This document shows, piece by piece, positions 1 through 33,607 of a DNA stretch of 64,000 bases (within the stretch, counting starts at the first letter, position 1; each line of letters begins with the position of its first letter). Below the pieces are notes generated by a model that saw only the letters and a list, made by a program, of their open reading frames with translations, searched no databases and had not been told where the DNA came from. A program made the position numbers and the translations under genes. This stretch comes from Anaerolineaceae bacterium (lineage in GTDB: Bacteria > Chloroflexota > Anaerolineae > Anaerolineales > Villigracilaceae): the NCBI GenBank assembly GCA_009772985.1, contig WOUS01000012.1, positions 46,044 through 110,043 on the forward strand, read 5' to 3'.

Positions 1-1436
1 AAATCCTTGATGAATTAAAAGATTTAAGAAAACTGCTTTATACAACACAGTGTAGAGAATGCGGAAAAAATGCTGAGATTCTTTACACCGTTTGGTCTTA
101 TAACGTAATATGTAATCAGTGTTCGCATGAATTTTTACTTTGGGACTATTGCCGTAAATATGGACAAACTGTTAAAGAACATAAAATACTATCAGAGTTT
201 CCCTGCCCAAATTGTGGAGTAGTACAGAAAAAATCAACCCTTCAAAGAACTACCACTCACCCTGTTTTGTTGGGCTATAAATGCTGTAAATCTTTACAGC
301 AAGAAGTTACCCTCAACGAAGATGATTTTAATCATTTACAGTTTATTGAAGCATCTCCACCATTAGCAGATGATTTCTTCCCAAAAACAGTTCTAGGTAA
401 AGGAGTAAACTTACGCCAACCCCAAAAACATGGTTTTGACAGCGTAGATAAATTTTATACTTCACGCAATTTAGCAGCAATGAGTCACTTATGGAAAACT
501 ATTCATCGAGTAGAGTCACGAGAATTAGCTGCTTATTTGGCGTTCGTTTTTACTTCTTTATATCAACGAGTGACACGATTTTCTGAATATAGGTTTTGGG
601 GTGGAAGTGGTAACACGGCACGTTTTAATGTTCCTTACATTTTCAATGAGACAAATGTATTCTTGACCTTTATTAGAAAGGCAAAATCAATTCAAGATCA
701 TTTATTATCAACATCTAGCAAATATACAGGCGAGGCATCTGTAGTATGTAATACTGCTACATCATTAGATTATTTGCCTGGCGAGTCTGTTGATTTGATT
801 TTTACCGACCCTCCTTTTGGAGCAAATATTAATTACAGTGAGATGAATATTTTGTGGGAGTCTTGGTTAGGCGCTTTTACCGATAAGACCGAAGAAGCAA
901 TAATTAATAAATTCCAAAATAAAGGAATATCTGAATACCAAACCTTAATGACACAGAGCATGAAAGAATCGTATCGAGTGTTGCGCCCCGGTCATTGGCT
1001 TTTGCTAGTTTTTATGAACTCATCGAGCGAAATTTGGAAGGCTTTACGCGCATCAATTATCAGCGCAGGATTCATTATAAAAAATGTTAATGTTTTCGAT
1101 AAACAGCATGGCACATTTAAGCAATTTGTCAGTGAAAATACGGCTGGGTTTGATTTAGTTTTACATTGTTTGAAACCTGAAAGCACAGAACAACCAATCA
1201 CTCCCATCATAAATCTAAAAAATTCAGTGGTTGATTTTTTAGAAAACAGTCATAATAGTTTGCCCACAACTGTATATCTTCATGTTGAACGTCAAGAAGA
1301 ACTTGACTTTAGAAAATTATATAGTGAATGGTTATCCTTATCGCTTATGTCGGATTCTGAATTAATGGGTTTTGTAAGTTTCAGAGAAACTGTAACAAAT
1401 TGGATTAATCAACGAAAAGGAAAAGAATTATCATGA
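1..1436 (+). CDS. DNA methyltransferase (N6-adenine/N4-cytosine type), 5' end cut by window edge
   Basis: Frame 3 is open from nt 3 straight into the 267..1436 ORF. It has catalytic motif IV TDPPFG (DLIFTDPPFGANINY). Upstream there are Cys-rich CxxC...CxxC...CPNC zinc-ribbon-like segments. The DNA is AT-rich, unlike the rest of the window. Confidence 0.75.
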   Translation, partial: ILDELKDLRKLLYTTQCRECGKNAEILYTVWSYNVICNQCSHEFLLWDYCRKYGQTVKEHKILSEFPCPNCGVVQKKSTLQRTTTHPVLLGYKCCKSLQQEVTLNEDDFNHLQFIEASPPLADDFFPKTVLGKGVNLRQPQKHGFDSVDKFYTSRNLAAMSHLWKTIHRVESRELAAYLAFVFTSLYQRVTRFSEYRFWGGSGNTARFNVPYIFNETNVFLTFIRKAKSIQDHLLSTSSKYTGEASVVCNTATSLDYLPGESVDLIFTDPPFGANINYSEMNILWESWLGAFTDKTEEAIINKFQNKGISEYQTLMTQSMKESYRVLRPGHWLLLVFMNSSSEIWKALRASIISAGFIIKNVNVFDKQHGTFKQFVSENTAGFDLVLHCLKPESTEQPITPIINLKNSVVDFLENSHNSLPTTVYLHVERQEELDFRKLYSEWLSLSLMSDSELMGFVSFRETVTNWINQRKGKELS

Positions 1437-2407
1437 AGCGCCCCAGAATATTACCTGCCTTTTCCACAGATGAGAAAAAGAAGGTACACGAACTTCTTGC
1501 TACACGAGTAGCGTTTATGATGGGCAGAAAATTCGAAGAAGATGATTGGGCATATGTTTATTGCGCCGCAAAAGGAATTCCCAATCAAGGTTGGAGTAAT
1601 CTCAAACTTGATGTTGTACATGATGGATTAGGAGTTGAACATAAAATGCTTCGTCCAAGTGGGGACAAGCCTGTGTCAGAAGTCTTTGGTTCACGTTTAA
1701 TGCACCCTTCTGCAACTCGTTCAATTCGCATTAGCAGCAATGGTGAAGCAAATGAAGTAATGAAAGATGTTATAGAACAATATGCGGCTTATCTAAAGCA
1801 GCGCCGAGAGAAGGTGCATGAACAACAACCTAACAAAGAGCCTAATATGAGAACAGGTTGGCTTCTTTGGCAATCTAACTTAAGAGATTTTGTCTATTTT
1901 GAAGAAGAGACTCTCATTCCTGACCCAAACGACTATATTGCCGAATGGCATGAAAATATTTCCAGGGGCGCTCGAAAAGCCAGTAAAAGTTTATGGATTT
2001 ACGAAAAAGAAACACGTGCAAAGAAATACTCAGTAACAACTGATGCAGGAGCAAAAATACAGCCTTATTTTGATGTTCCGCCAGCAAGTGAGCCAAACTT
2101 ATACTTCTTCAGAGTTCAAGGTGAAGAATATGGAACGGACTTAGTTAGAATTTGGATACCAACGACTATGGCACGTGAACTTAAAAGGCTGACAGGTGAA
2201 TTGACCGCTGACAACCTTCAAAGCGCAATCTCTAATATTCTATCAGGAATAAAAGAACCCCAAGCCGAATACAACGCCAAAAAGGAAGAAGCAGCACCCG
2301 TAATTCTCAAATCTGAAACTTACCTAAAGTTAGATTCTCTATTTCCAAATGCTGTAAGTGATTCGCATAAGATTCAACTTCTTGTCGAGTTATTAAATAC
2401 GAGATAA
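1433..2407 (+). CDS. hypothetical protein, candidate type II restriction endonuclease partner of the methyltransferase
   Basis: Its start overlaps the methyltransferase stop (ATGA). It has the same AT-rich composition. A possible PD-(D/E)xK signature is present: LD60VVHD64GLGVE69HK71. No other recognisable motif. Confidence 0.4.
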   Translation: MKRPRILPAFSTDEKKKVHELLATRVAFMMGRKFEEDDWAYVYCAAKGIPNQGWSNLKLDVVHDGLGVEHKMLRPSGDKPVSEVFGSRLMHPSATRSIRISSNGEANEVMKDVIEQYAAYLKQRREKVHEQQPNKEPNMRTGWLLWQSNLRDFVYFEEETLIPDPNDYIAEWHENISRGARKASKSLWIYEKETRAKKYSVTTDAGAKIQPYFDVPPASEPNLYFFRVQGEEYGTDLVRIWIPTTMARELKRLTGELTADNLQSAISNILSGIKEPQAEYNAKKEEAAPVILKSETYLKLDSLFPNAVSDSHKIQLLVELLNTR

Positions 2408-2558
2408 CTTAAGGCAAAAAGCGTGCCAACAAAGCGTGCAGGCGACTCGGCTACGCCTCCCCAATTCATGGGTGGCTGGCGCAAAACGCCGAGCGCCTAA
2501 CGCAAACCTTGGGCCGCTTAATTAATCCCTATCTGATTTAACAAAGGATTGTGTATTC

Positions 2559-3119
2559 ATGGAAAATAAATCGGCAGTTCAAAATCAATTATTTCAATCC
2601 ATAATTGCTGAAGCAAAGAGAGTCCATGAAGATGCGCTTTTTTGTACTGCTGGACATACTCACGAGGCACGACATTGGGATACTTTACAGCTATGGTTAG
2701 GCATTCCTGCAACGGTGATCGCGGCTGTAACAGGAATTACTTCTCTGGCAAGTAATAGTGCTTCTGTTGGCATTTTAGGATTGAATATAAATATAATCAC
2801 GGGAATTTTTTCCCTTTTAGTAGCAACAATATCTGGCTTGGCTACTTTTCTAGACCCAAAAGGTCAGGCTGCTAAGCATTATCAAGCAGTAAATTCTTAC
2901 GCGGCCTTGCTCAATGAAACTCGATTCTTCTATGAAATTGATTGTATCCAAAACCGAGATGTTGAAAAACTCGAAGCTAACCTTAGAAAGTTATCAGAAC
3001 GGCTAAACGACCTAAACAATCAAACTCCGTTGATTTCAACACGTGCTGCGGCCCTTGCAGAAAAATCTATTCTTTCCGGTAATTATGAATATCGGGTTGA
3101 TAAACAGAGTGTCCGATAA
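2559..3119 (+). CDS. 2-TM membrane protein with SLATT-like architecture (candidate conflict-system effector)
   Basis: 186 aa. An N-terminal helix is followed by two adjacent TM helices (LGIPATVIAAVTGITSLA / IITGIFSLLVATISGLATFL) and then a helical tail (AAKHYQAVNSYAALLNETRFF). An AAAGGA RBS lies upstream. The family assignment is from memory of the SLATT layout only. Confidence 0.45.
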   Translation: MENKSAVQNQLFQSIIAEAKRVHEDALFCTAGHTHEARHWDTLQLWLGIPATVIAAVTGITSLASNSASVGILGLNINIITGIFSLLVATISGLATFLDPKGQAAKHYQAVNSYAALLNETRFFYEIDCIQNRDVEKLEANLRKLSERLNDLNNQTPLISTRAAALAEKSILSGNYEYRVDKQSVR

Positions 3120-3164
3120 AGAAAAGACATCAATGACCGGTTTTTATTGAAAGTTTGTTTCGAT

Positions 3165-3869
3165 TCAGCCCTTTGCCTTTTGCGCCACGCTGTTCAGTTG
3201 TTCCCGGTCGGTGATCTCGAATTCGGTGCGGGTAATTTTTATCAATCCGCTGTCGGAGAAACGCTGGAGGAAGCGGCAAACCATCTCGCGGGTGGAGCCG
3301 ATGCGGGCGGCCATGTCATCGAGGGTCAGGGAGCGGGCGGTTGGACCGGACGCCGCCTGGCCGGGGAACTCCAACAGGAGGCGGGCGAGGCGTCCGGCCA
3401 CCGGCTGGAAGGCCAGGCCTTCGATGACTTCGCTGGCATGGAGCATCCGCTTGACCATCAGCCGGGAAAGTTCCCAGGCCAGGCGGCCGTTCTCCAGCAG
3501 GAGGGGCAGGATATCCTCGCGCCGCCACAAGTACAGGGCGGCCGGCTGGTTGATTTGCAGGGTCATCGGGTTGGGCATCTCCTCCTGGAAAAAAGCCAGC
3601 CCCCAGAAGAGTTCTCCCGGCCCCAGTTCGGCAATCACCAGGCTGCGCCCTTCGCCGGATTCTTTCACGACGTTCAGGCGGCCTTCGACCACCAGGAACA
3701 GGTACGGCCAGCAGTCGCCGGCGCAGGTCAGGAAGCCGCCGGCCGGGTAACTCCTGGAAATGGCCGCGCCGGCCAAACGGTCCCGCGCCGCCGCGCTGAG
3801 GTTGGAAAATAGCGGGTGTTGTTTGAGCAAGTCGAGGAGAGGAGTCGCCATACGCTGATTATAGTTCAT
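3165..3869 (-). CDS. Crp/Fnr family transcriptional regulator (copy 1)
   Basis: It has a cNMP-binding-like N-terminal barrel (FLVVEGRLNVVKESGEGRSLVIAELGPGELFW). It has a C-terminal HTH (LTLDDMAARIGSTREMVCRFLQRF). The GC-rich composition starts exactly at its 3' end. Confidence 0.9.
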   Translation of the reverse strand: MNYNQRMATPLLDLLKQHPLFSNLSAAARDRLAGAAISRSYPAGGFLTCAGDCWPYLFLVVEGRLNVVKESGEGRSLVIAELGPGELFWGLAFFQEEMPNPMTLQINQPAALYLWRREDILPLLLENGRLAWELSRLMVKRMLHASEVIEGLAFQPVAGRLARLLLEFPGQAASGPTARSLTLDDMAARIGSTREMVCRFLQRFSDSGLIKITRTEFEITDREQLNSVAQKAKG

Positions 3870-3910
3870 TCACAAGCATTTAACTTTAGGCAAAGACAGG
3901 CCGCGTTGCA

Positions 3911-3926
3911 TGTGCTATAAATCACA
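3911..3926. promoter_or_regulatory. CRP-type palindrome TGTGC-N6-TCACA in divergent promoter region
   Basis: The sequence is tgtgctataaatcaca. It lies in the 87-bp gap between crp copy 1 (minus) and the 3957 membrane-protein gene (plus). It matches the TGTGA-N6-TCACA class of Crp-family operators. Confidence 0.45.
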
Positions 3927-3956
3927 CATAGAAATCCATCCCATAAGGAGTTTGCA

Positions 3957-4799
3957 ATGGAAAATACCCCCAAGAACGTCCGTTTGATCCTGGCCATCCT
4001 GGCCGTGGTAGTCGGCATCTTCATGATTGCCGTCGCGCCCTTCCTGATCCAGACCTCGCTGGAGAAGGTGCTCACAGAACTGTCCATCGTGGCGGCGGAA
4101 AAGCCGGCCTACGCCAGCGGCATCCTGCTGTTCTCCTACTTCTTCCCGCTCTACCGCGGGCTGATCTACATCGGCGGGATCGCCCTGCTGCTGCTGGCGC
4201 GCTCCATCTACCAGGGAAAGGAATGGGCATACCCTGTGGCATTGCTGGCGGCGGCCTTCCCCTCGGCGGGCGGGATGTTCATGTTCATGCCCTATGTCTC
4301 GTTCGTGGATGGCTTCCCCATCCCGATGGTCGTTTCGATGGTGGGGTTGACCTTCTTCTGGTCGCTCATCCTGTTGCGCAAAGTGGACAAGTGGGTGAAA
4401 TGGGGGCAATTCCTGGCCTTGACCTTCGCCGGGATGCTGACCACGCACGCCTTCATCGTCGGCATCGGCAACCTGCGCACGCTGCTGACCCGCCCGGACA
4501 AGCCGTTCTACGACGGGCTGGGGTGGTGGGTGCTGGCCTGGTCGCAGCCCATCCAGTGGATCTGCGCCGTCCTGCTCTTCGTCGCCATCTACCAAATGGC
4601 CGCGCGTAAATTCTCCGGCTGGTGGCTGGCGCTGGTGTCGGTCACCTCCCTGGCGGCAATTGACATCCCGATGCAGATCATCCGCCTGACCATGACCGAG
4701 TCCACCGCCTGGGATTATACGTATGGCTTGCCGATGATCATCGGCCTGCTGTTTGTCCTGCTCTTCCCGAAGTTCAAAGCCGCCCTGATAAAAGAATAG
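3957..4799 (+). CDS. polytopic membrane protein, unknown family (family B, distant paralog of 21387 and 22305)
   Basis: AAGGAG RBS. 280 aa, about 8 TM helices. It shares the motif GKEWAYPVALLAAA with NKEKWAWLWGAVAAT and KKEWAWGWGVVAAT in the downstream paralogs. Confidence 0.8.
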   Translation: MENTPKNVRLILAILAVVVGIFMIAVAPFLIQTSLEKVLTELSIVAAEKPAYASGILLFSYFFPLYRGLIYIGGIALLLLARSIYQGKEWAYPVALLAAAFPSAGGMFMFMPYVSFVDGFPIPMVVSMVGLTFFWSLILLRKVDKWVKWGQFLALTFAGMLTTHAFIVGIGNLRTLLTRPDKPFYDGLGWWVLAWSQPIQWICAVLLFVAIYQMAARKFSGWWLALVSVTSLAAIDIPMQIIRLTMTESTAWDYTYGLPMIIGLLFVLLFPKFKAALIKE

Positions 4800-14441: not shown

Positions 14442-14594
14442 ATGAAACGAATCCTTGCATTTCTCTCCATGCTTGCGTTGATGGCATTGGCTTGCCGCTT
14501 CAGCGCATCGGACTCCGCGCCTCAGCCTGCTGCGTCAACCCAGGCATCACTACTACACCGAAACGCCGATTCAATAAAAGGAAAAGTAAAATGA
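14442..14594 (+). pseudogene. orphan lipoprotein signal-peptide fragment
   Basis: MKRILAFLSMLALMALACRFSAS matches the ..L(S/A)CRF(T/S) signals of the next two genes. It runs directly into another copy of the conserved leader and stops after 50 codons. Confidence 0.4.
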
Positions 14595-17545
14595 AACAGC
14601 CAAGAATTCTCATCACCTTTCTTCTCTTGATGGCGCTCACGCTTTCATGCAGGTTCACAACGCCTTCTCCCACCATCACGCCGGATCCCAATGTGCCAGG
14701 CGACATAAACCCTCCCGGATCAGAGTTCAATTTCAGAGCGGCAGCCGATTACTCGGCAAAGCTAGGGGATGTCGGCGTGCTTGTGATGCAGGACGGTAAG
14801 ATCGTGTTTGAGGAGTATCACAATGGGAATAATGAGAACACTGCCACGCATATTCATAGCGCCACAAAAGGATTTTGGGGGCCGGCCATTGCGGCGATGA
14901 TCGAGGATGGCATGATACAGGGTTACGATCAAAAAGTGTCGGACATACTCACCGAGTGGAAAACGACGGACAAGAAGGATATTACCATCCGACAAGTCAT
15001 GGAACTTACCTCCGGCCTTAAGAATGACATTGCGGAAATTCAAGGCACTGAGCCGGATGCTCCTGACCTTTATTATTATGCGATACACGACGTAAAACTC
15101 GTTACCGAACCTGGGACGCGTTTTCAATATGGTCCAGTCAATTTCTATGTCATGGGTGCGCTCATGGATCGGGTTCTCAAGAACAGCGGTAGCCAATATG
15201 CAGACCCGCTCGACTATCTCCAAAAGCGACTCCTGGACAAGGTCGGCGTGACCTACGAAAAGTGGATTCGTGACGATGCGGGAAATCCCCACATTCCGAA
15301 TGGCGCCTACCTCACCCCGAGGAACTTTGCCACCTGGGGACAATTTGTATTGCAGAAGGGGAATTGGAACGGCGAGCAACTGGTCCGTAAGGACTTGATG
15401 GAAGAACTGTTCAAGCCGTCGTCTGCAAATCCTGGGTTTGGGCTTTTCCTGTGGCTAAACCAACCCGGCGGCCAAGGGGCCGTGCCTCAGATGGCTGCGC
15501 CGCCCGGATCGACAGCCGGATTCATCTACCATGACGGCTACCCTGACATGGTGGGTATTATGGGCGCAGGGAAAAACAGAATGTATATTGTTCCGTCGCT
15601 TAATCTGGTCATCGCCCGCCAGACGCTTAGTGATGACGACGATGGATTTGATGATCACACTTTCCTGAAACTTTTGTTTAGCGGGTTCGACGCGTATCAA
15701 CCCGCCCAAGGCTCGTTCACCCCGGCCATGCAGGACGCCACGTGGACCGATGCCGCCCGGCAACGCGACGTGCCGGTGCGCATTTACGCGCCGGATCTCA
15801 AACACGGCAGCGGTCCTTTCCCCGCCATCGTGTTCTCGCACGGCGGGGGCAAGTCGCGCGAGGCCTACACGTATCTGGGCACGTATTGGGCCGAGCGCGG
15901 ATACATCGTCGTATTCCTGACGCACCCAGGCAGCGACCGCGCGGTCATCGAGGCACAGGAAACGCAGGGGCTTCAGGCGTTGATGGCAGCGCTGGCTGGG
16001 GTCGATGAATTCCATCTTCGCCCGGAGGATGTCCGCTTCGTCATAGACAAGCTGTTGTCGGATGACCCTGGCAGCGAGCTGTTGCGGGGACGGGTGGATG
16101 CGGGTCGGATCGGGATGGCGGGGCAATGCCTTGGTGCGACAACGGCGTTGGCGATGGTCGGGCTGCGCGCCAATCTGCCGGACCAGAAGGACGCCACGTT
16201 CACCGACCCGCGCATCAGGGCCGCCGTCGCGCTCTCGCCGCAGATGGGCGGGGGGCGCGCGGATTCACCTCTGCATGAAAAGTCGTGGGAGCTCATCCAA
16301 GTCCCAACGCTGGTGATGACCGGGTCACAGGATTTCAACTGGATGCCCGCGGTTAAAGCGAATCCCCGGCTGATCCAGATGCCCTACGACGGCCTCCCCC
16401 CGGGCGACAAGTATCTCGCCGAGATCAAGGATGCCGAGCACAACGCCTTCACCGATTCGGTGCCATACTACCCGGCCCGCGAGCGTGACCCCCGGCATCA
16501 CGTCTGGATCCAGCAGGCGACGACCGCGTTCTTCGACGCGTATCTGAAGGGCGATACCGGGGCGCTCGACTGGCTGAAGAACGAGGTCCTCGAAGCGGAA
16601 ACGCAAGGCGAAATCCGTCAGGAGCAGAAGGCCGACGCCGGGTCAGGGACAGAGAACACTCCAGCGGGCGGCGTCGAGCCATGGCGCCTGCGGTCTGGTG
16701 TAGATGATGCCAATGCCCTCGGCGGCGGCGGCCCGTATGCCGTGGGCGTCGTCGAGACCCTGACGCTTCACGATGCCGCGCGCGCGAAAGACCTTCTGCT
16801 TCGCGTCACCTATCCCGAGGGGGACGGGATGTTTCCCATCATCCTGTTCTCACATTGCGGTGATTGTAAGCGGGCCGATTTCGAGCTGTTGGTTCGGCAC
16901 TGGGCATCGCATGGCTACATCGTGCTTCAGATGGACCACGAGCCCGGCGCGCGAACTCGCGCGCAGGATATGAGTTTCGTGCTCGATTCGGTGGACGAGA
17001 TTGGACACAAGGCCCCCGCAGTCGAGGGCAAAATGGACGCGACGCGCGTCGGAGCGGGCGGGCACCTGGTGGGAGCGTATGCCGCGAGCATGTTGGTGGG
17101 TATGAAGGAATTTCAAAGCGGCGGAGCCGCGAAACCGGACACCTTCGCCGACCCGAGGGTGGACGCGGCCTTACTGCTTTCCCCTCAGGGACGCGGGCAG
17201 GGGCTGACGGAGAACTCGTGGGAAGACATCGTCATACCAATGCTCGTGGCGGCTGGTTCCGAGACCCCCAGCAGCCGGACGTCGAACCCGTCCGAGTGGC
17301 GCACCGACCCCTATTATTTCGCGAAGCCCGGCGACAAATACCTCCTCTGGATCGAGGGAATGGACAATAGCTACGCGGGCCTCTGGCGCGGCGGCGTGGA
17401 CCCAAAGCCAGCCGCGTGGATCCTGGATGTGACGACCGCTTTCTGGGATGCCTACCTGAAGCAGGACGCGGACGCGCGGGCCTGGCTGCAATCCGGCCAA
17501 CTGGCGGCCCAGGCTGAAGGCGCGCTCAAACTGGAGTCGAAATGA
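14591..17545 (+). CDS. three-domain lipoprotein: beta-lactamase-family serine hydrolase plus two dienelactone-hydrolase/PAF-acetylhydrolase-like alpha/beta domains
   Basis: The signal is MKQPRILITFLLLMALTLSC. The SxxK motif is HSATKGF. Domain 2 has FSHGGG...GMAGQCLGA...AEHNAF. Domain 3 has FSHCGD...GAGGHLVGA. Confidence 0.85.
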   Translation: MKQPRILITFLLLMALTLSCRFTTPSPTITPDPNVPGDINPPGSEFNFRAAADYSAKLGDVGVLVMQDGKIVFEEYHNGNNENTATHIHSATKGFWGPAIAAMIEDGMIQGYDQKVSDILTEWKTTDKKDITIRQVMELTSGLKNDIAEIQGTEPDAPDLYYYAIHDVKLVTEPGTRFQYGPVNFYVMGALMDRVLKNSGSQYADPLDYLQKRLLDKVGVTYEKWIRDDAGNPHIPNGAYLTPRNFATWGQFVLQKGNWNGEQLVRKDLMEELFKPSSANPGFGLFLWLNQPGGQGAVPQMAAPPGSTAGFIYHDGYPDMVGIMGAGKNRMYIVPSLNLVIARQTLSDDDDGFDDHTFLKLLFSGFDAYQPAQGSFTPAMQDATWTDAARQRDVPVRIYAPDLKHGSGPFPAIVFSHGGGKSREAYTYLGTYWAERGYIVVFLTHPGSDRAVIEAQETQGLQALMAALAGVDEFHLRPEDVRFVIDKLLSDDPGSELLRGRVDAGRIGMAGQCLGATTALAMVGLRANLPDQKDATFTDPRIRAAVALSPQMGGGRADSPLHEKSWELIQVPTLVMTGSQDFNWMPAVKANPRLIQMPYDGLPPGDKYLAEIKDAEHNAFTDSVPYYPARERDPRHHVWIQQATTAFFDAYLKGDTGALDWLKNEVLEAETQGEIRQEQKADAGSGTENTPAGGVEPWRLRSGVDDANALGGGGPYAVGVVETLTLHDAARAKDLLLRVTYPEGDGMFPIILFSHCGDCKRADFELLVRHWASHGYIVLQMDHEPGARTRAQDMSFVLDSVDEIGHKAPAVEGKMDATRVGAGGHLVGAYAASMLVGMKEFQSGGAAKPDTFADPRVDAALLLSPQGRGQGLTENSWEDIVIPMLVAAGSETPSSRTSNPSEWRTDPYYFAKPGDKYLLWIEGMDNSYAGLWRGGVDPKPAAWILDVTTAFWDAYLKQDADARAWLQSGQLAAQAEGALKLESK

Positions 17546-17602
17546 AGCGGCTTCAAACGCCGCAACCACGCCGAGACGCCGATTCAGTAAAGGAAATGCA
17601 AA

Positions 17603-18748
17603 ATGAAACACCCAAGAATTATCTTCTCCCTTCTTTTGTTAACGGCACTCACGCTTTCATGCAGATTCACTGCATCCACGCCTGTTGCCACGCAGAGGAC
17701 TGACGCACCTGCGCCAACGGACGAAACCATCATCCCGGGCACACCCGCATCCGGCACCATCCCCGAAGGGGAAAGCGCCGCATACGATTGGTCCGCGCTC
17801 GACCAGACGTTGGAAAGTTTCGTGCCTGGCAAAGTGGACGGCTTGACCTTTCTGCTCGCCAAAGATGGGCAGGTGATTTACGAGAAGGCGCTTGGAAATC
17901 AAACGATGGACAGTTTCCTGCCCATTGCATCATCCACCAAGATGCCTTCGGCGGTGGTTATCCTGACGCTGGTGGAAGACGGGTTGATTGACCTGGACGA
18001 ACCCGTCGCCGCGTATTTGCAGGGACACATCAACTGGCCCGCCGACAAAGCCGCCATCACCACGCGCATGTTGCTCAATCACACCTCCGGCTTGCTCAAT
18101 CCAGGTTGTATCAGTAATCGTTGGAATGGAACATTGCAAGCCTGCGCCCAGGAAATCGCAGATGCGCCGCTGGAATTTTCGCCCGGCACACAGTTTGCTT
18201 ATGGCGGCGGGAGTTTCCAGGTGGCGGGCTACGTTGCTGAAGTGGTGAGCGGCAAATCCTGGAATGATTTATTTCAAGAACGCCTGGCAGAGCCGCTTGG
18301 GATGACGCAGTTCACGTACAGCGGCGGAACGCTGGGCAGCGAAACTAATCCGCGCATCGCCGGGGGCGCTTCATCGGATGTGGTTGATTACAATAAAATC
18401 CTCCAGATGATTTTGAACGGGGGACAATACAACGGGAAACAAATCCTCTCTCTCCAAACCGTTCAGATGATGTCCGCCAGCCAAATCTCCGGCTTGCCTC
18501 TCCTGCGCAGTCCTGGAGAAGACGATCTGCTGCTGGGATACAGTTTCGGGTTTTGGATTTCCGACCCGTCCATCCACCCCGGCAGCAACGGCCCCGAGTT
18601 GAGCGACCAGGGCGCGTTCGGCTGTACTCCCTGGGTGGACCTCGACCTCGGTTATTCCGCTATCCTGCTCATCAAAGACCGCACGCGTACCGGGACGGAA
18701 ATCTGGAATGTCATCCGTCCCATCATTATTCGGGAACTCGATCAATGA
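17603..18748 (+). CDS. beta-lactamase-family serine hydrolase lipoprotein
   Basis: The signal is MKHPRIIFSLLLLTALTLSC. The SxxK motif is ASSTKMP. It is a paralog of the N-terminal domain of the previous gene. Confidence 0.9.
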   Translation: MKHPRIIFSLLLLTALTLSCRFTASTPVATQRTDAPAPTDETIIPGTPASGTIPEGESAAYDWSALDQTLESFVPGKVDGLTFLLAKDGQVIYEKALGNQTMDSFLPIASSTKMPSAVVILTLVEDGLIDLDEPVAAYLQGHINWPADKAAITTRMLLNHTSGLLNPGCISNRWNGTLQACAQEIADAPLEFSPGTQFAYGGGSFQVAGYVAEVVSGKSWNDLFQERLAEPLGMTQFTYSGGTLGSETNPRIAGGASSDVVDYNKILQMILNGGQYNGKQILSLQTVQMMSASQISGLPLLRSPGEDDLLLGYSFGFWISDPSIHPGSNGPELSDQGAFGCTPWVDLDLGYSAILLIKDRTRTGTEIWNVIRPIIIRELDQ

Positions 18749-28264: not shown

Positions 28265-28951
28265 ATGAGAAACAAGTGGTGGGCCAAACTGCTGCGCATC
28301 GTCGGCATCGTCTTCATGAGCCTGACTGCACTCTTCACATTGATGGGCGGCGCTGGCACAGCCTGTGTCGCCCTCAACCCGACCGGCTTCGGTGGGACAT
28401 TCGCCGGCATTGCCCCCTTCCAGTGGCTGTGGATTTTGTTCGTGCTGGTCGGCATCGCCGCCGGGATCATGGGTGTGCGCGCCGTCGTCCTGCTCATCAA
28501 AGGAATGAAGCACGCTTACCGTGACGCACTGATCGCCCTGCTGCTCGGCACGGTACTCAACGTCGTCCACCTGTTCGCATCGCGCGCCCTGCGCGGCTCG
28601 TCCATGCCCGTGGACGGCGTGCTGTACATGAACATCCTGACCCTGGTCATCTTCCTCCTGTTCCGCATCCCCGGCGTCTGGCAGGGCGTGGACTACGAGA
28701 AGCCTGCCGGCGGCGGGCAAACCGGCACGTACGCCGCCGCCATCGCCCTGGCCGCCTGCGGACTGCTCTCGCTGACCATCCAGTTCCTGATGGCCCCCAC
28801 CCACACCATCGGCGGGGTCAACTACGCGGACGCCTGGCACGCCACATTGACGGCTCTGGGCGTGGCCTTAATCCTGGCCGGCCTCGTGACCGCACTCCAC
28901 GCCCGCCGGATCACGGTCCGGCGCGCCGCGCTGCCCGAAGCCGCAAAGTGA
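28265..28951 (+). CDS. polytopic membrane protein, unknown function
   Basis: AAAGGAG RBS. 228 aa, about 6 TM helices. It is the last gene before a terminator. Confidence 0.75.
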   Translation: MRNKWWAKLLRIVGIVFMSLTALFTLMGGAGTACVALNPTGFGGTFAGIAPFQWLWILFVLVGIAAGIMGVRAVVLLIKGMKHAYRDALIALLLGTVLNVVHLFASRALRGSSMPVDGVLYMNILTLVIFLLFRIPGVWQGVDYEKPAGGGQTGTYAAAIALAACGLLSLTIQFLMAPTHTIGGVNYADAWHATLTALGVALILAGLVTALHARRITVRRAALPEAAK

Positions 28952-28970
28952 TCTCAAACGAACCGCATCG

Positions 28971-28999
28971 AAACTCCCCGTCCCGGCGGGGAGTTTTTC
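28971..28999 (+). terminator. rho-independent terminator
   Basis: aaactccccg tcccgg cggggagttt followed by tttcgtt. Confidence 0.6.
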
Positions 29000-29069
29000 G
29001 TTGTTGACATTTTACAAAATGGCGCGACAATACAATCGCAATCACTTTTGGAGGGGCGGGAGGATTCTT

Positions 29070-31331
29070 ATGAAACGCTTTCGCTTATCTTACGGGGTGG
29101 TTCTTGTCTCAGTAATTTCGTCTGTAGTGATCCTCTTCGGGGGCATCTTTGCATATCCTGCCCAGGCTGCCGGGACGCCAAAAACATCTCAACCGCTGGC
29201 TCCGTCGCCGCAAGAGGCCGATCTGTCGAGCGTTACGCTGACTCTGGCCGATCTCCCGCCGGGGTTCGAGGTAATGCCAGACAATCTGCTCGCCAATTTT
29301 CGCAGCCTGCTCGAACAGGTCAATTCTGCCGGGGGTTTCTCGAACGCGGAGATGGTGAACCTGGTCGGGTATCAAAGAATAGATTACCCATACTCCGAGT
29401 TTGTGGTCAGTTTCCTGTTAACTCCCCTGAATACCCTCCAGATCTTTCAATTCGACCAGCAACTGTCTGACCCGGACAAGTTCCTCCGAACAACCGAAAA
29501 TGCACTATCCGGTTCCGGGTTCAGCCAATTCGAGTTGATCCCTGGCTCAACCGACATCGGAGCGGCTTCGATTGGCTTTACCTGCAAAGTGGATGCGGGG
29601 GCGATCACGATCGAGGAAGATATTCTCTCGTGGCGCCGGAAGAATGTTAATGCACAAATCGCCATTTACTATTCGGAGGGATACCAGCCCACCGCAGATA
29701 TTCTGACCCTGGGCCGCACCCTGGATACCCGGCTGGAGGCCGCCGTCGGGCCGGAAACCGAGGCTGTTACCGGCGGGCCTTTCCGCCTCGCCGGGCCATA
29801 CGTTCCCGAAATTACCACCTACATCCCCACCCCGCTCGACCTGTCGCCGAAGCCGTCCGTCATCGGAACGAACCTGCTCCTGGCCGCCCTGATGATGCTC
29901 CCATTCGCCGTGGCGGCCGAGTTCTTCACCCGCACGCTGGCCGAAAACGAGAAGGCCCTGAAGCGCAGGATCCGCCCGATGAACTGGTTCGCCCGCCTGC
30001 AGGAACGGATGGCCGGATTCTTCAAGACACGTTTCGGCGACGTGCTGAAAGTTTTCGTTGTAATGATTTTCTACGGCCTGGTCTTCTCCCTGCTCGATAA
30101 GACCTGGAATCCGTTCAGCCTGAAAGGGCTGATCCTGTTCGGCTCCATGACCATCGCCTACGGTCTGGTGGGGGTTGCCGACGACATCCTGCAATGGCGC
30201 CGCATCCGCCGCTGGGGACTGGCCGCCGAACTCAAGGTGCGGCCCGCCAACATACTGCTCGCCGCGCTGTCCACCGCCACCAGCCGGATACTTTCCCTCG
30301 TCCCCGGCCTGATGTTCGGCACGCCCGAAGCCCTCGAAACAGACGACAAACAATTCGATGCGTCGAAACGCAACACCCTGCTAAAAATCAGCGGTTTCAC
30401 CTTCGCCATCATCGGCCTGACCGTCTGGCTGCCGACAGTCGTCACCAATTTGCTCCAACGCATCAACCTGCTTCCATCCGTTTTGAACAACCTGCTGGGC
30501 GGGTTTGAATCCATTCTGCTGGTCATCTTCGCTGTCGCCCTCGAAAACCTGTTCGTCCAGATGCTCGGCTTTCCCGGCAGTTTCGGCCATTCGCTGAAAC
30601 GCCGCAGCCGCTGGCTGTGGATCGGCCTGCTCGTACTCGTGGCCTTCGTGTTCTACCACACACTCATCAATCCTCGCGGCGGACTGGCCTCCGCCATCCA
30701 GGAGGGCAACGTCATCCTGTTCCTGAGCGTGGCCGCCGCCTTCGTGGTCTTCACCTTCGGGATGCGGCTCTTCTTTAGGATTCGGAACCGGCGCGCCGAG
30801 AAGCGCGGGACCGTCTCGCCGCTTCCCGCGACGCCAGAACCTGCCGCGCCCGCTCCCACCGCGCCCTCCGCCGGACCCGCTCCCGCGAAGCCGGTCCCGG
30901 CCGCGCCCGCTCCGGCTGCTCCTCCGCCGGCAACCGTCGCCGTGCCGCCCGTCACCGCCGTGCAAAAGGCCCCGGTCACCGTCCCGCTGGCGGGAGAAAA
31001 GCAGTGTCCCGTCTGCGGCGAAAAGATCAAGGCGGAAGCGAAGTTGTGCCGCCACTGCCGGGCGACCTTCACCGTGACGCGCAAGGGCTACTGCCTGACC
31101 GACCACGATGTGGTCGAGGTGAACGAGGCGGGCAAATGCGTCCGCTGCGGCGGCGAGCCGGCCGACCTGCACGTGGAGAGCCGCCTGCTGCAAGCGCCCG
31201 CCGTCCGGCCGGTGAAACCCGCCCCGCCCGCACCCGCCCCCGCGCCCGGCGCCAAACTCTGCCCCTCCTGCGGGCAGACAATCAAGGCCGAGGCAAAGAT
31301 CTGCCGCTTCTGCCGCACCATGCTCGGATGA
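29070..31331 (+). CDS. large membrane protein: secreted N-domain, about 8 TM helices, Pro/Ala-rich linker, three C-terminal zinc-ribbon motifs
   Basis: GGGAGG RBS with a start at MKRFRLSYGVVLVSV. The zinc ribbons are CPVCGEKIKAEAKLCRHCRATF, CLTDHD...CVRCGG and CPSCGQTIKAEAKICRFCRTML. Confidence 0.8.
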   Translation: MKRFRLSYGVVLVSVISSVVILFGGIFAYPAQAAGTPKTSQPLAPSPQEADLSSVTLTLADLPPGFEVMPDNLLANFRSLLEQVNSAGGFSNAEMVNLVGYQRIDYPYSEFVVSFLLTPLNTLQIFQFDQQLSDPDKFLRTTENALSGSGFSQFELIPGSTDIGAASIGFTCKVDAGAITIEEDILSWRRKNVNAQIAIYYSEGYQPTADILTLGRTLDTRLEAAVGPETEAVTGGPFRLAGPYVPEITTYIPTPLDLSPKPSVIGTNLLLAALMMLPFAVAAEFFTRTLAENEKALKRRIRPMNWFARLQERMAGFFKTRFGDVLKVFVVMIFYGLVFSLLDKTWNPFSLKGLILFGSMTIAYGLVGVADDILQWRRIRRWGLAAELKVRPANILLAALSTATSRILSLVPGLMFGTPEALETDDKQFDASKRNTLLKISGFTFAIIGLTVWLPTVVTNLLQRINLLPSVLNNLLGGFESILLVIFAVALENLFVQMLGFPGSFGHSLKRRSRWLWIGLLVLVAFVFYHTLINPRGGLASAIQEGNVILFLSVAAAFVVFTFGMRLFFRIRNRRAEKRGTVSPLPATPEPAAPAPTAPSAGPAPAKPVPAAPAPAAPPPATVAVPPVTAVQKAPVTVPLAGEKQCPVCGEKIKAEAKLCRHCRATFTVTRKGYCLTDHDVVEVNEAGKCVRCGGEPADLHVESRLLQAPAVRPVKPAPPAPAPAPGAKLCPSCGQTIKAEAKICRFCRTMLG

Positions 31332-31344
31332 GAAAGGAACAACC

Positions 31345-32388
31345 ATGAACCCGACAACCCAAAAATGCCCGATGTGCGCCGAGGAAATTCCCGCCAAGGC
31401 AACCGCCTGCCCCTTCTGCGGGACGCGGCTGGTTGACGAAACACCCGCACCGCCCGCTCCCGCCCCGGCCCGGACCCCAGTCCCGCCGCGGCCCGGGCCC
31501 GCGCAAGTTGCTCCGCCGCCGCCCGTCCGCAGGAAAAATCAATGGATCTGGTGGCTCGTCGGCGGCGGGATAGCAGGCCTCTGTTTGTGTGCCGCGCTGG
31601 CCGTGGGCGGCGTCCTGCTCTACCAGAGCGGACTGCTGTTCCCGGCCTCCCCCCTCGCGGAGCCGACCTTCTCCCCGCCGGAGGAAGCCACGGTCCAGCC
31701 TGAACCGACCGCCCCCACGCGCACAAAGACCCCGGTCCCCACACCGACCGTCAACGCCCCGGCGCAGGCCTTCGGCGACCCGATCCTGGCCGCCATCGAG
31801 GGAAGGCCGCCGCATATCACGGACGACTTCAGCCGGGACCGCGGCTGGTACGGATTTGACGGCGTCACCCAGTCGGCAGACATGGTCCTGGTTCACGATG
31901 GAGTCATCCAGGCTGCCGGCGATACGCAGCGGGTTTTCACACACATGGTCATGACATGGCCTTACGACGAATTGGACAACTACGCTGTAATGGTCGAGGC
32001 AGTCTTCCTCGCCAGCGGCGGCAGCGCCCGCGACCGCGAGATCGGCATATGCTGGTGGCCGGGGGACGAACTGGGAGAGCGGTTCTTATTGAGGGAAAGC
32101 GGGGTTTTCGAGGGGGGAACCTGCCACGACAGGGAATGCCCGGCGTTCATCTTCGGCCACATGGCCCCCATTCCGGCTGGCGAGACGGTCTCCCTGACCC
32201 TGATCCACTTGCGCGGCGAATCGGTTGTGTACGTTAACGGCGTTCCGCTTGCTTACCACAAACTTGCCATCACCGACTACTCGTCCGGTTTCTCCCTGTG
32301 CCCGCATACGTACGACGGAAAGACATCGGATATTGTTTACGACAACCTGAAAGTCTGGAACCTCGATCTGGTCCCCGGCCTGCCCTGA
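31345..32388 (+). CDS. zinc-ribbon / single-TM / extracytoplasmic jelly-roll-like domain protein
   Basis: The N-terminal zinc ribbon is CPMCAEEIPAKATACPFCGTRL. It has a Pro-rich linker and a TM helix WIWWLVGGGIAGLCLCAALAVGGVLL. The C-terminal domain ends ..DIVYDNLKVWNL, which looks LamG/DUF1080-like (weak). Confidence 0.75.
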   Translation: MNPTTQKCPMCAEEIPAKATACPFCGTRLVDETPAPPAPAPARTPVPPRPGPAQVAPPPPVRRKNQWIWWLVGGGIAGLCLCAALAVGGVLLYQSGLLFPASPLAEPTFSPPEEATVQPEPTAPTRTKTPVPTPTVNAPAQAFGDPILAAIEGRPPHITDDFSRDRGWYGFDGVTQSADMVLVHDGVIQAAGDTQRVFTHMVMTWPYDELDNYAVMVEAVFLASGGSARDREIGICWWPGDELGERFLLRESGVFEGGTCHDRECPAFIFGHMAPIPAGETVSLTLIHLRGESVVYVNGVPLAYHKLAITDYSSGFSLCPHTYDGKTSDIVYDNLKVWNLDLVPGLP

Positions 32389-32417
32389 TAACGGGATGGC
32401 CGGAAAAGGAGACACAT

Positions 32418-33563
32418 ATGGCAAAATCATCGCTTTTACGGGTCATGATCTCCAGCCGGTGCAAGGATAATTTTCCTCCCGGCAAGGACGGAAAGCCGCT
32501 TTCCGAGATCCGCCTGGAATTGTGCGAAGAAATCGAGCGGCTCAAGGTCTTTGGCAAACCGGTATTCGAAGTCTGGATCAACGAAACAACCCCGCCGCAG
32601 GGCGGGACCTGGGACAGCCGGGACACCTGTCTGCGGGCAGTGGAGAACTGCGACATCCTGCTGGTGCTTTACAATGGTAATGCCGGCTGGGCCAAGAACA
32701 AGGGGGAACTCGGCATTTGTCACGCCGAGTACGACCGAGGCCTTTCGCTCGCACGCGATAAGGTCCGGGTGGTGGATATCTCCACAAAAGAGTCGCTCGC
32801 AGAACTGAGACAGGACAAGAATAACGAACTATTTCAGGACTACTTCAACCTAGAAAATGCCTTCCGCGGCGGCGATGTGACGACGGTGGAGGACCTGAAG
32901 AAGCGCGTCAAGGAAACCCTGCACGGGGCGCTGATCTCCCTGGCGCAGGGAGGCGTGCGCGAGGCCGCCCGCGGGAAACCCGGCATAGGCGACGCACTAA
33001 CCTGGAGCCGTCTTGATTTTGCCTCACGTGAGCGGAAAATGGTTACGCTACTCCGCAATACACTTGTGGAACAATCCGGTGGACAATCGAAGAAAAACAA
33101 CGTAATTGCACCACTGGCTGGTGTGGATATCCTGCTGGTCCCGCACGCCATCCCCGCCGCGTTCAGCATCGGCCAGGCCAAGGAAATGGTGGGACAGCCC
33201 TTCCTGCGTGACCACGAACTGGCCGATACGCTCACAGACGGCGTCAACGGTCCGGTCCACATCATCGCCTGCTACAAGTCCGCCACCGAGTCGCAGGCCA
33301 TCAAACTGCTCGGCTTCCCGGACGCCACAGTGGTGACCACCCCGTTTGGCGTATTCGTCGCTGACAACGTCCAGAAAGTTCAGTTCGCGTTCATTGCCAA
33401 TTGTTGCGACGAAGCAAGCATTCGCAACGGTGTTCATAATTTTCTGAAATGGCTGGCCCGGTCCGGGGAGGATGTCTATCTGGCCGCACGGGCCGGTGCG
33501 CGCGCCCGGATCGTCCAGGCCATTGCCCGGGAAACGCCATCCAGCCCCGGCGCTTCAAGGTAG
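32418..33563 (+). CDS. DUF4062-like (TIR/nucleoside-deoxyribosyltransferase-like fold) N-domain protein with uncharacterised C-domain
   Basis: AAAGGAG RBS. The N-terminus RVMISSRCKD...EIRLELCEEIERL...DTCLRAVENCDILLVLYNGNAGW fits my memory of the DUF4062 pattern (vFISS...e.R......cl..i..cD..i.i.g..YG). Confidence 0.55.
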   Translation: MAKSSLLRVMISSRCKDNFPPGKDGKPLSEIRLELCEEIERLKVFGKPVFEVWINETTPPQGGTWDSRDTCLRAVENCDILLVLYNGNAGWAKNKGELGICHAEYDRGLSLARDKVRVVDISTKESLAELRQDKNNELFQDYFNLENAFRGGDVTTVEDLKKRVKETLHGALISLAQGGVREAARGKPGIGDALTWSRLDFASRERKMVTLLRNTLVEQSGGQSKKNNVIAPLAGVDILLVPHAIPAAFSIGQAKEMVGQPFLRDHELADTLTDGVNGPVHIIACYKSATESQAIKLLGFPDATVVTTPFGVFVADNVQKVQFAFIANCCDEASIRNGVHNFLKWLARSGEDVYLAARAGARARIVQAIARETPSSPGASR

Positions 33564-33580
33564 CATTATTCGCAAACAAA

Positions 33581-33607
33581 AAGTCCGGCTGGCCTCCAGC
33601 CGGACTT
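33581..33607 (+). terminator. 12-bp stem hairpin after the DUF4062-like gene
   Basis: aagtccggctgg cct ccagccggactt. It is preceded by an A-run and has no strong T tract. Confidence 0.4.

Follow-up and report, generated by a model that had tools for sequence, protein, structure and literature searches.

A probable single-gene DUF4062 anti-phage system beside a zinc-ribbon membrane-protein cluster in an Anaerolineaceae bacterium

According to Osinski et al. (bioRxiv 2026, doi 10.64898/2026.05.01.722283), DUF4062 is a TIR-like NADase domain, and the single-gene Swarozyc system, represented by KpSwz, is an auto-inhibited oligomer that the phage portal triggers via a C-terminal auxiliary (AUX) domain, with NAD+ depletion and abortive infection as the outcome. 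A second system, Evangelion Eva01 (pMW2 WP_000072390), is likewise a single-gene DUF4062-plus-AUX defence protein, which depends on E87 as well as on its AUX domain and reduces NAD+ levels; the same study resolved several DUF4062 lineages (Ibarra-Chavez et al., bioRxiv 2026, doi 10.64898/2026.06.25.731849). The catalytic glutamate of DUF4062 proteins is E97 in KpSwz, E87 (followed by Y88) in Eva01 and E1008 in TEP1. Here, we analyse a stretch of 64,000 nucleotides from an Anaerolineaceae bacterium (GenBank assembly GCA_009772985.1, contig WOUS01000012.1; hereafter the window), and in it three co-directional genes on the + strand, A, B and C, which are separated by gaps of 13 nt (A-B) and 29 nt (B-C) and of which the third encodes a DUF4062 protein. 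We hold it to be likely that this interval consists of two unrelated neighbours, namely a lineage-specific cluster of membrane proteins, A and B, and a self-contained, horizontally acquired DUF4062 anti-phage gene, C.

A preliminary description of the locus had taken the three genes for a single module in which envelope-spanning sensors are coupled to a TIR-like protein, and had named conserved co-occurrence as one way of checking it, with its absence from other genomes as a refutation. This check was run from all three genes. Namely, when one genome per species was scanned for gene C, 108 relatives were obtained, and 80 loci were taken with up to 10 kb per side; tblastn of A and B against these loci found neither gene within 10 kb in any of the 80. 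Conversely, none of the seven A-bearing loci (L007-L011, L093 and L094, from five independent relatives at 45-77% identity) contains gene C. Two of them, L007 and L008, keep the synteny of the window, from FGE-sulfatase, UbiA and two small membrane proteins through A and on to lactate permease, and neither has a DUF4062 gene ahead of the lactate permease gene. Relatives of the B ectodomain at 50% identity show no C in the 225-322 nt left downstream on their contigs, and in one locus (L095) there is no A upstream of the B-ectodomain relative. What is more, the sole close relative with several kilobases of upstream sequence (L002) carries a zinc-ribbon protein, a fusion of a zinc ribbon to a solute-binding protein (SBP) and a 265-aa B-ectodomain protein before C, with no relative of A in the 3.6 kb upstream of C. 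The GC content at third codon positions is lowest for gene C among the local genes (0.70 vs 0.75-0.88). An alignment of the sequence ahead of the lactate permease gene was also examined for an insertion scar; L007 proved too diverged there for boundaries to be placed. Because the three genes are not conserved together, their reading as one functional module is refuted by the criterion of the preliminary description itself, and gene C is a horizontally acquired accessory gene, which entered between B and the gene for lactate permease in one sub-lineage.

Gene C had been called DUF4062-like in the preliminary description, and its match to the Pfam family (PF13271) indeed exceeds the gathering threshold, reaching 31.3 bits over residues 8-106 where 24.7 are required; many of its homologues carry precomputed PF13271 matches as well. 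This is a large family: it counts more than 1,188 close homologues and 542 clusters at 50% identity, its members are mostly full-length at approximately 375 aa, and it is spread over many bacterial phyla and one archaeal metagenome-assembled genome (MAG). We place the start of gene C at 32418 because its first methionine is conserved in at least 90% of the aligned homologues. M10, the start in the database copy, was considered and rejected, since homologues conserve the nine residues before it. The AlphaFold2 (AF2) model, built on an alignment of 60 sequences, has a predicted local distance difference test score (pLDDT) of 83.5 and consists of a TIR-like core, a long stalk helix, a low-confidence, disordered linker (residues 184-198) and a C-terminal AUX domain. 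In Foldseek, the best PDB match of the N-domain is the plant RPS4/RRS1 TIR (4c6t_D, E = 5.4e-4, probability 1.00), followed by matches to TIR-STING, the SPARTA TIR and ThsB. The putative catalytic glutamate, E104, is conserved without exception in both the close (60) and the divergent (77) homologues, even at 28-53% identity. Neither gene C nor its family profile retrieved any PDB sequence, and NCBIfam gave no useful match for gene C.

The neighbourhoods of the relatives of gene C are overwhelmingly those of conflict genes. In approximately 9 of the 64 resolved loci, the relative lies between hsdM and hsdS of a type I restriction-modification (R-M) operon, in the order HsdM-C-HsdS-HsdR; these loci are L015:7605-16537, L017, L021, L023, L025, L026, L027, L036 and L058, and they include a Methanosaeta (archaeal) MAG. 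Elsewhere BrxL stands directly upstream (L012), or the flanking genes are a type III methyltransferase and a GajB-like helicase, a subtilase, or PDC-M68B/LmuB-like genes; in one locus (L006) the relative adjoins CBASS, AbiEii and an integrase, and in another (L001) it lies between TIR/NACHT genes and a type I-C CRISPR-Cas system. The most common neighbour occurs in at most 14 of the 64 resolved loci. Judging from these defence-island contexts and from the two 2026 preprints, gene C is a TIR-like conflict protein, and it shares with the single-gene DUF4062 systems the profile match, the fold, the catalytic glutamate, the single-gene architecture and, at the level of the family, the defence context. 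The earlier suggestion of a conflict (anti-phage) system thus survives for gene C alone and falls for the three genes jointly, and gene C now has its place in a defence family whose experimental characterisation dates only from 2026.

Two further observations concern the relatives of gene C. In 13 loci (L035:10001-12897 together with L045, L047, L049-L051, L053, L054, L056, L057, L060, L073 and L077), the next gene after the relative encodes a PhoD_2 (PF19050) phosphatase-like protein of approximately 590 aa, at a gap of -1 to 33 nt, or 83 nt in one case. The hosts of this pair are Pseudomonas and other Pseudomonadota, such as Rhodoferax, Cellvibrio, Herminiimonas and Hydrogenophaga; the PhoD_2 partner has no PADLOC match and is absent from the window. 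The pair may be a two-gene variant. Moreover, Hydrogenophaga sp. ANAO-22 (NZ_CP159956.1) has two diverged copies of the family, L059 and L077, at 51% and 45% identity to gene C, one of which has a PhoD_2 partner.

How would such a protein act? By homology with KpSwz and Eva01, gene C at rest would form an auto-inhibited oligomer via its TIR-like heads and helical stalks, an infection cue would be recognised by its conserved C-terminal AUX domain, and the infection would then be aborted through depletion of NAD+. It is probably co-transcribed with A and B by read-through, without needing either of them.

That said, several observations weigh against gene C as a self-contained anti-phage gene. 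First, PADLOC with its 2023 models, which the preliminary description had proposed as a check, gives only a marginal match of gene C, to PDC-S02 (E = 0.02). Second, gene C in the window lies outside any defence island, among hydrolase, transporter and membrane-protein genes, so that the defence-island or mobile-element setting holds for the family and not for this copy. Third, an hhalign comparison of gene C with Eva01 places residues 49-173 of the former onto residues 26-153 of the latter at E = 0.017 and a probability of 2.7%. Fourth, conservation of the AUX domain matches that of the core (0.67 vs 0.65 in the close set and 0.36 vs 0.34 in the divergent set), which one would not normally expect of a domain that senses fast-evolving phage proteins. 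Finally, B and C are adjacent, with an identical 29-nt spacer, in the close relatives L002-L005 (C at 82% identity) and only there, and therefore a functional link specific to this lineage is conceivable.

The conservation of the AUX domain and the position of the window copy among housekeeping genes are also what an alternative would lead one to expect, in which gene C is not an NADase immune effector at all and either has a non-defence role, for instance in the metabolism of nucleosides or nucleotides, as in the related nucleoside 2-deoxyribosyltransferases, or has as its main output the restriction-endonuclease-like AUX domain, acting as a nuclease, with the TIR-like domain serving for assembly alone. 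Modelled alone, the AUX domain reaches a pLDDT of 88.6 and a predicted template modelling score of 0.86, and it has invariant or near-invariant polar residues (D265, H281, D302, D316, Q322 and C329). Its best, weak and recurrent Foldseek matches are enriched in folds of the PD-(D/E)xK type, namely XisH, FokI, McrC, Cap4, the R2 endonuclease and Mrr. Against this, the AUX domain modelled alone has no significant match (the lowest E values being 0.1 in PDB and 0.008 in BFVD), the domain has no canonical (D/E)xK motif, the TIR catalytic glutamate is invariant throughout the family, and the contexts of the family are overwhelmingly defence loci. We therefore consider this alternative unlikely. A few possible fusions of AUX to other N-terminal domains (P0229, P0248 and others) were also encountered; they may be metagenome artefacts and were left unused.

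Slightly less probable still is that the relatives of gene C are guards of R-M systems, in the manner of PrrC in EcoprrI, with the window copy being an orphan that has lost its partner. The insertions between hsdM and hsdS and the position after BrxL speak for such a role. On the other hand, no R-M system adjoins the gene in most loci, the window among them, and independent defence genes are commonly embedded in R-M operons. A related idea, which we put forward tentatively and regard as improbable, though less so than either of these alternatives, is that gene C belongs to a mechanistically distinct DUF4062 lineage, in which the conserved restriction-endonuclease-like AUX domain senses a conserved feature of nucleic acids or the R-M status of the host and not a variable phage structural protein. 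If true, this would explain the recurrent insertion of its relatives between hsdM and hsdS, and it might bear on the tight pairing with a PhoD-like phosphatase in the proteobacterial sub-clade.

Least probable by a wide margin is that A, B and C form one signalling or defence module after all, the zinc-ribbon proteins of the envelope sensing an extracytoplasmic cue and relaying it to the TIR-like protein of gene C in the cytoplasm, for example through their zinc ribbons: the shared strand, the short gaps, the lack of any + strand terminator-like site between the three genes and the constant B-C spacer of the close relatives fit it, against which stand the 80 C loci with neither A nor B, the seven A loci with no C, the syntenic L007 and L008, the upstream region of L002 that has no A, the downstream ends of the 50%-identity B-ectodomain relatives that have no C, and the fact that the DUF4062 systems tested so far act as single genes. 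We return, then, to two unrelated neighbours. Co-transcription of A, B and C through read-through is likely, and it reflects the landing site of gene C. Mistaking this adjacency for a novel envelope-to-TIR signalling system is thereby avoided.

The neighbours of gene C deserve an account of their own. Gene A begins with a signal or anchor segment and an ectodomain, continues with seven more hydrophobic segments (residues 264-565), and ends with a Pro/Ala linker and a cytoplasmic zinc-ribbon tail; the outline given in the preliminary description, with about eight transmembrane (TM) helices and a Pro/Ala linker, is thus borne out. Its claim of three C-terminal ribbons of one form, CPxCGxxIKAEAKxCRxCR, is correct for two, at residues 646-664 and 731-749, and not for the element between them, an atypical Cys/His cluster (C675, H679, C690 and C693). 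The profile of NCBIfam NF041501 ('FGLLP motif-containing membrane protein') aligns end to end with the TM core of gene A (residues 252-565 onto profile positions 2-311 of 312) at 68.5 bits, which is under the curated cut-off of 150 bits, so that gene A is not a member by that rule; the full-length alignment suggests that it is a distant NF041501 relative only. A marginal match to NF053815 (TcaA; E = 0.23) belongs to gene A as well, and a literature search on 'FGLLP' yielded nothing relevant. Among the homologues of gene A (P0272-P0390), the multi-TM core is kept while the N-terminal ectodomain is exchanged, the swapped domains being RCC1 repeats, PD40/DPP-IV propellers, SBBP, F5/8 type C, NBR1, Bmp and SH3. 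The C-terminal double zinc ribbons are often present and are gained or lost across these homologues, which, where they carry a source name, come from Chloroflexi and Actinobacteria.

Gene B has the N-terminal zinc ribbon and the single TM segment, the latter after a Pro-rich linker, that had been ascribed to it; the jelly-roll-like ectodomain that had also been proposed receives indirect support. Namely, Pfam gives no match for gene B itself, ectodomain included, and four of its five full-length paralogues have sub-threshold matches to PF06439 (3-keto-disaccharide hydrolase), one of them also to PF13385 (Laminin_G_3), again below threshold. Both are families of ConA-like beta-sandwiches. The ectodomain of gene B is therefore probably a ConA-like beta-sandwich, specific to this lineage; its family is tiny, with 9 proteins. 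In L002:1241-3621, the same parts are found in two genes: residues 5-127 of gene B match the N-terminus of a zinc-ribbon-SBP_bac_1 gene (65% identity), and residues 89-347 match the separate 265-aa open reading frame (76% identity). Judged against this relative, gene B seems to be the product of a fusion or a deletion. In layout, that is, zinc ribbon, TM segment and ectodomain, gene B resembles TcaA-type proteins, a likeness that is architectural only, as gene B has no match to the TcaA profile.

Zinc-ribbon-anchored genes, one to four in number, follow the A relative in four of the five independent relatives (L007/L008, L009/L010, L011 and L093), in agreement with the earlier expectation that zinc-ribbon membrane proteins of the two types occur together. 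The genes in question have an N-terminal zinc ribbon, a linker and a TM segment, and they include full-length paralogues of B (26-30% identity), zinc-ribbon-SBP fusions and zinc-ribbon-DUF805 proteins. Judged from these gene orders, the pairing of A with B is real and conserved, and A and B are a vertically inherited cluster of Chloroflexota (Anaerolineae-like), in which a polytopic protein is followed by a variable number of single-pass zinc-ribbon proteins, which bear an ectodomain and keep the N-terminal ribbon in the cytoplasm. On account of the ectodomains, the cluster probably acts in the cell envelope or binds solutes. Zinc-ribbon-bearing membrane proteins are thereby documented as a conserved cluster of Chloroflexota.

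The coordinates of all features are collected in Table 1. The coordinates, common strand and spacing given in the preliminary description are reproduced by the open reading frames, as are a terminator upstream and a hairpin downstream. The upstream hairpin closes a membrane-protein gene (28265-28951). The downstream hairpin has no real T-run and is kept together with gene C in the close relative L003. Purine-rich ribosome-binding sites lie ahead of all three genes, with GGAGGGGCGGGAGG preceding the ATG of gene A and AAAGGAGA preceding gene C.

Table 1. Features of the A-B-C interval, in positions of the window.
Feature	Position	Strand	Details or basis
Intrinsic-terminator-like hairpin and T-run	28970-28997	+	12-pair stem, 6 GC pairs, TTTT tail
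Sigma-70-like promoter candidate ahead of gene A	29004-29031	+	TTGACA, 16 nt spacer, GACAAT; 10/12 matches; called from the consensus match alone
Gene A	29070-31331	+	753 aa
Gene A, 7-TM core	29859-30764	+	Related to NCBIfam NF041501
Gene A, zinc ribbons	31005-31061 and 31260-31316	+	
Gene A, atypical Cys/His cluster	31092-31148	+	Between the ribbons
Gene B	31345-32388	+	347 aa
Gene B, N-terminal cytoplasmic zinc ribbon	31366-31425	+	CPMCAEEIPAKATACPFCG at residues 8-26
Gene B, single TM segment	31564-31620	+	Residues 74-92
Gene C	32418-33563	+	381 aa; single-gene type with a DUF4062 (TIR-like NADase) and an AUX domain
Gene C, TIR-like (DUF4062) core, alpha/beta	32436-32855	+	Residues 7-146; Pfam, AF2, Foldseek
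Gene C, putative catalytic Glu E104	32727-32729 (codon)	+	Motif ICHAEY; invariant in homologues
Gene C, long 'stalk' helix	32886-32966	+	Residues 157-183; AF2
Gene C, C-terminal AUX domain, alpha/beta	33012-33533	+	Residues 199-372; modelling, conservation
Stable hairpin 3' of gene C	33582-33606	+	11-bp stem, -23.4 kcal/mol, z = -6.15 vs shuffles

Two regions elsewhere in the window may be mentioned. Positions 1-4000 have a GC content of 0.37-0.49, compared with approximately 0.6 in the remainder; they may be of foreign origin or simply unusual. At 14492-18748, two genes of the beta-lactamase family lie side by side, the first of which (1017 aa) is fused to alpha/beta-hydrolase modules (PAF-AH, chlorophyllase or PETase-like).

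How, finally, does gene C compare with the systems described so far? The PrrC (EcoprrI) and RloC-type genes embedded in type I R-M operons lie between hsd genes, as the relatives of gene C do in approximately nine loci; they have no relationship to it in sequence or fold, and gene C in the window has no R-M neighbour. With ThsB of Thoeris, TIR-STING and the TIR-APAZ proteins of SPARTA, gene C has the fold of its N-domain in common, and the same NAD+ chemistry would be expected; it differs from them in belonging to another sequence family, DUF4062, and in lacking a partner ThsA, Argonaute or cyclase. Eva01 is closer. Gene C shares with it the E-Y catalytic motif (E104-Y105 in gene C, where E104 aligns with the 'TEMEY' segment of Eva01, and E87-Y88 in Eva01), it has a conserved tryptophan (T64-W65-D66) at the position of the Q/W/E motif of Eva01, and, like Eva01, a single-gene system in which AUX is essential, it is one gene with an AUX domain. 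In contrast, the AUX domains of the two proteins (381 vs 324 aa) do not align, and AUX is not diversified within the lineage of gene C. What is more, Eva01 is enriched on plasmids, whereas tblastn found relatives of gene C in 2 of 72,556 plasmid records, neither of them from Staphylococcus or Enterococcus. Since the core alone aligns, and weakly, and since the relatives are nearly absent from plasmids, gene C lies, on the evidence of these comparisons, outside the Eva01 lineage. Swarozyc has the same plan as gene C, namely a single gene with an N-terminal DUF4062 TIR-like domain, a catalytic glutamate, a helical stalk and a C-terminal AUX domain, and it has in common with the gene C family a patchy distribution across phyla and a location in defence islands. 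No member from Enterobacteriaceae or Acinetobacter is present among the 108 genome matches of gene C, and blastn of a Pseudomonas relative gave no match in 5,426 E. coli genomes. The AUX domain of KpSwz is described as a winged helix-turn-helix domain that binds the phage portal, while that of gene C is weakly restriction-endonuclease-like in its model; for this reason, gene C may use a different sensor. Taken with Swarozyc and Evangelion, our comparison points to a widespread and very conserved DUF4062 lineage, often found inside type I R-M operons, with a sensor domain unlike that of Eva01.

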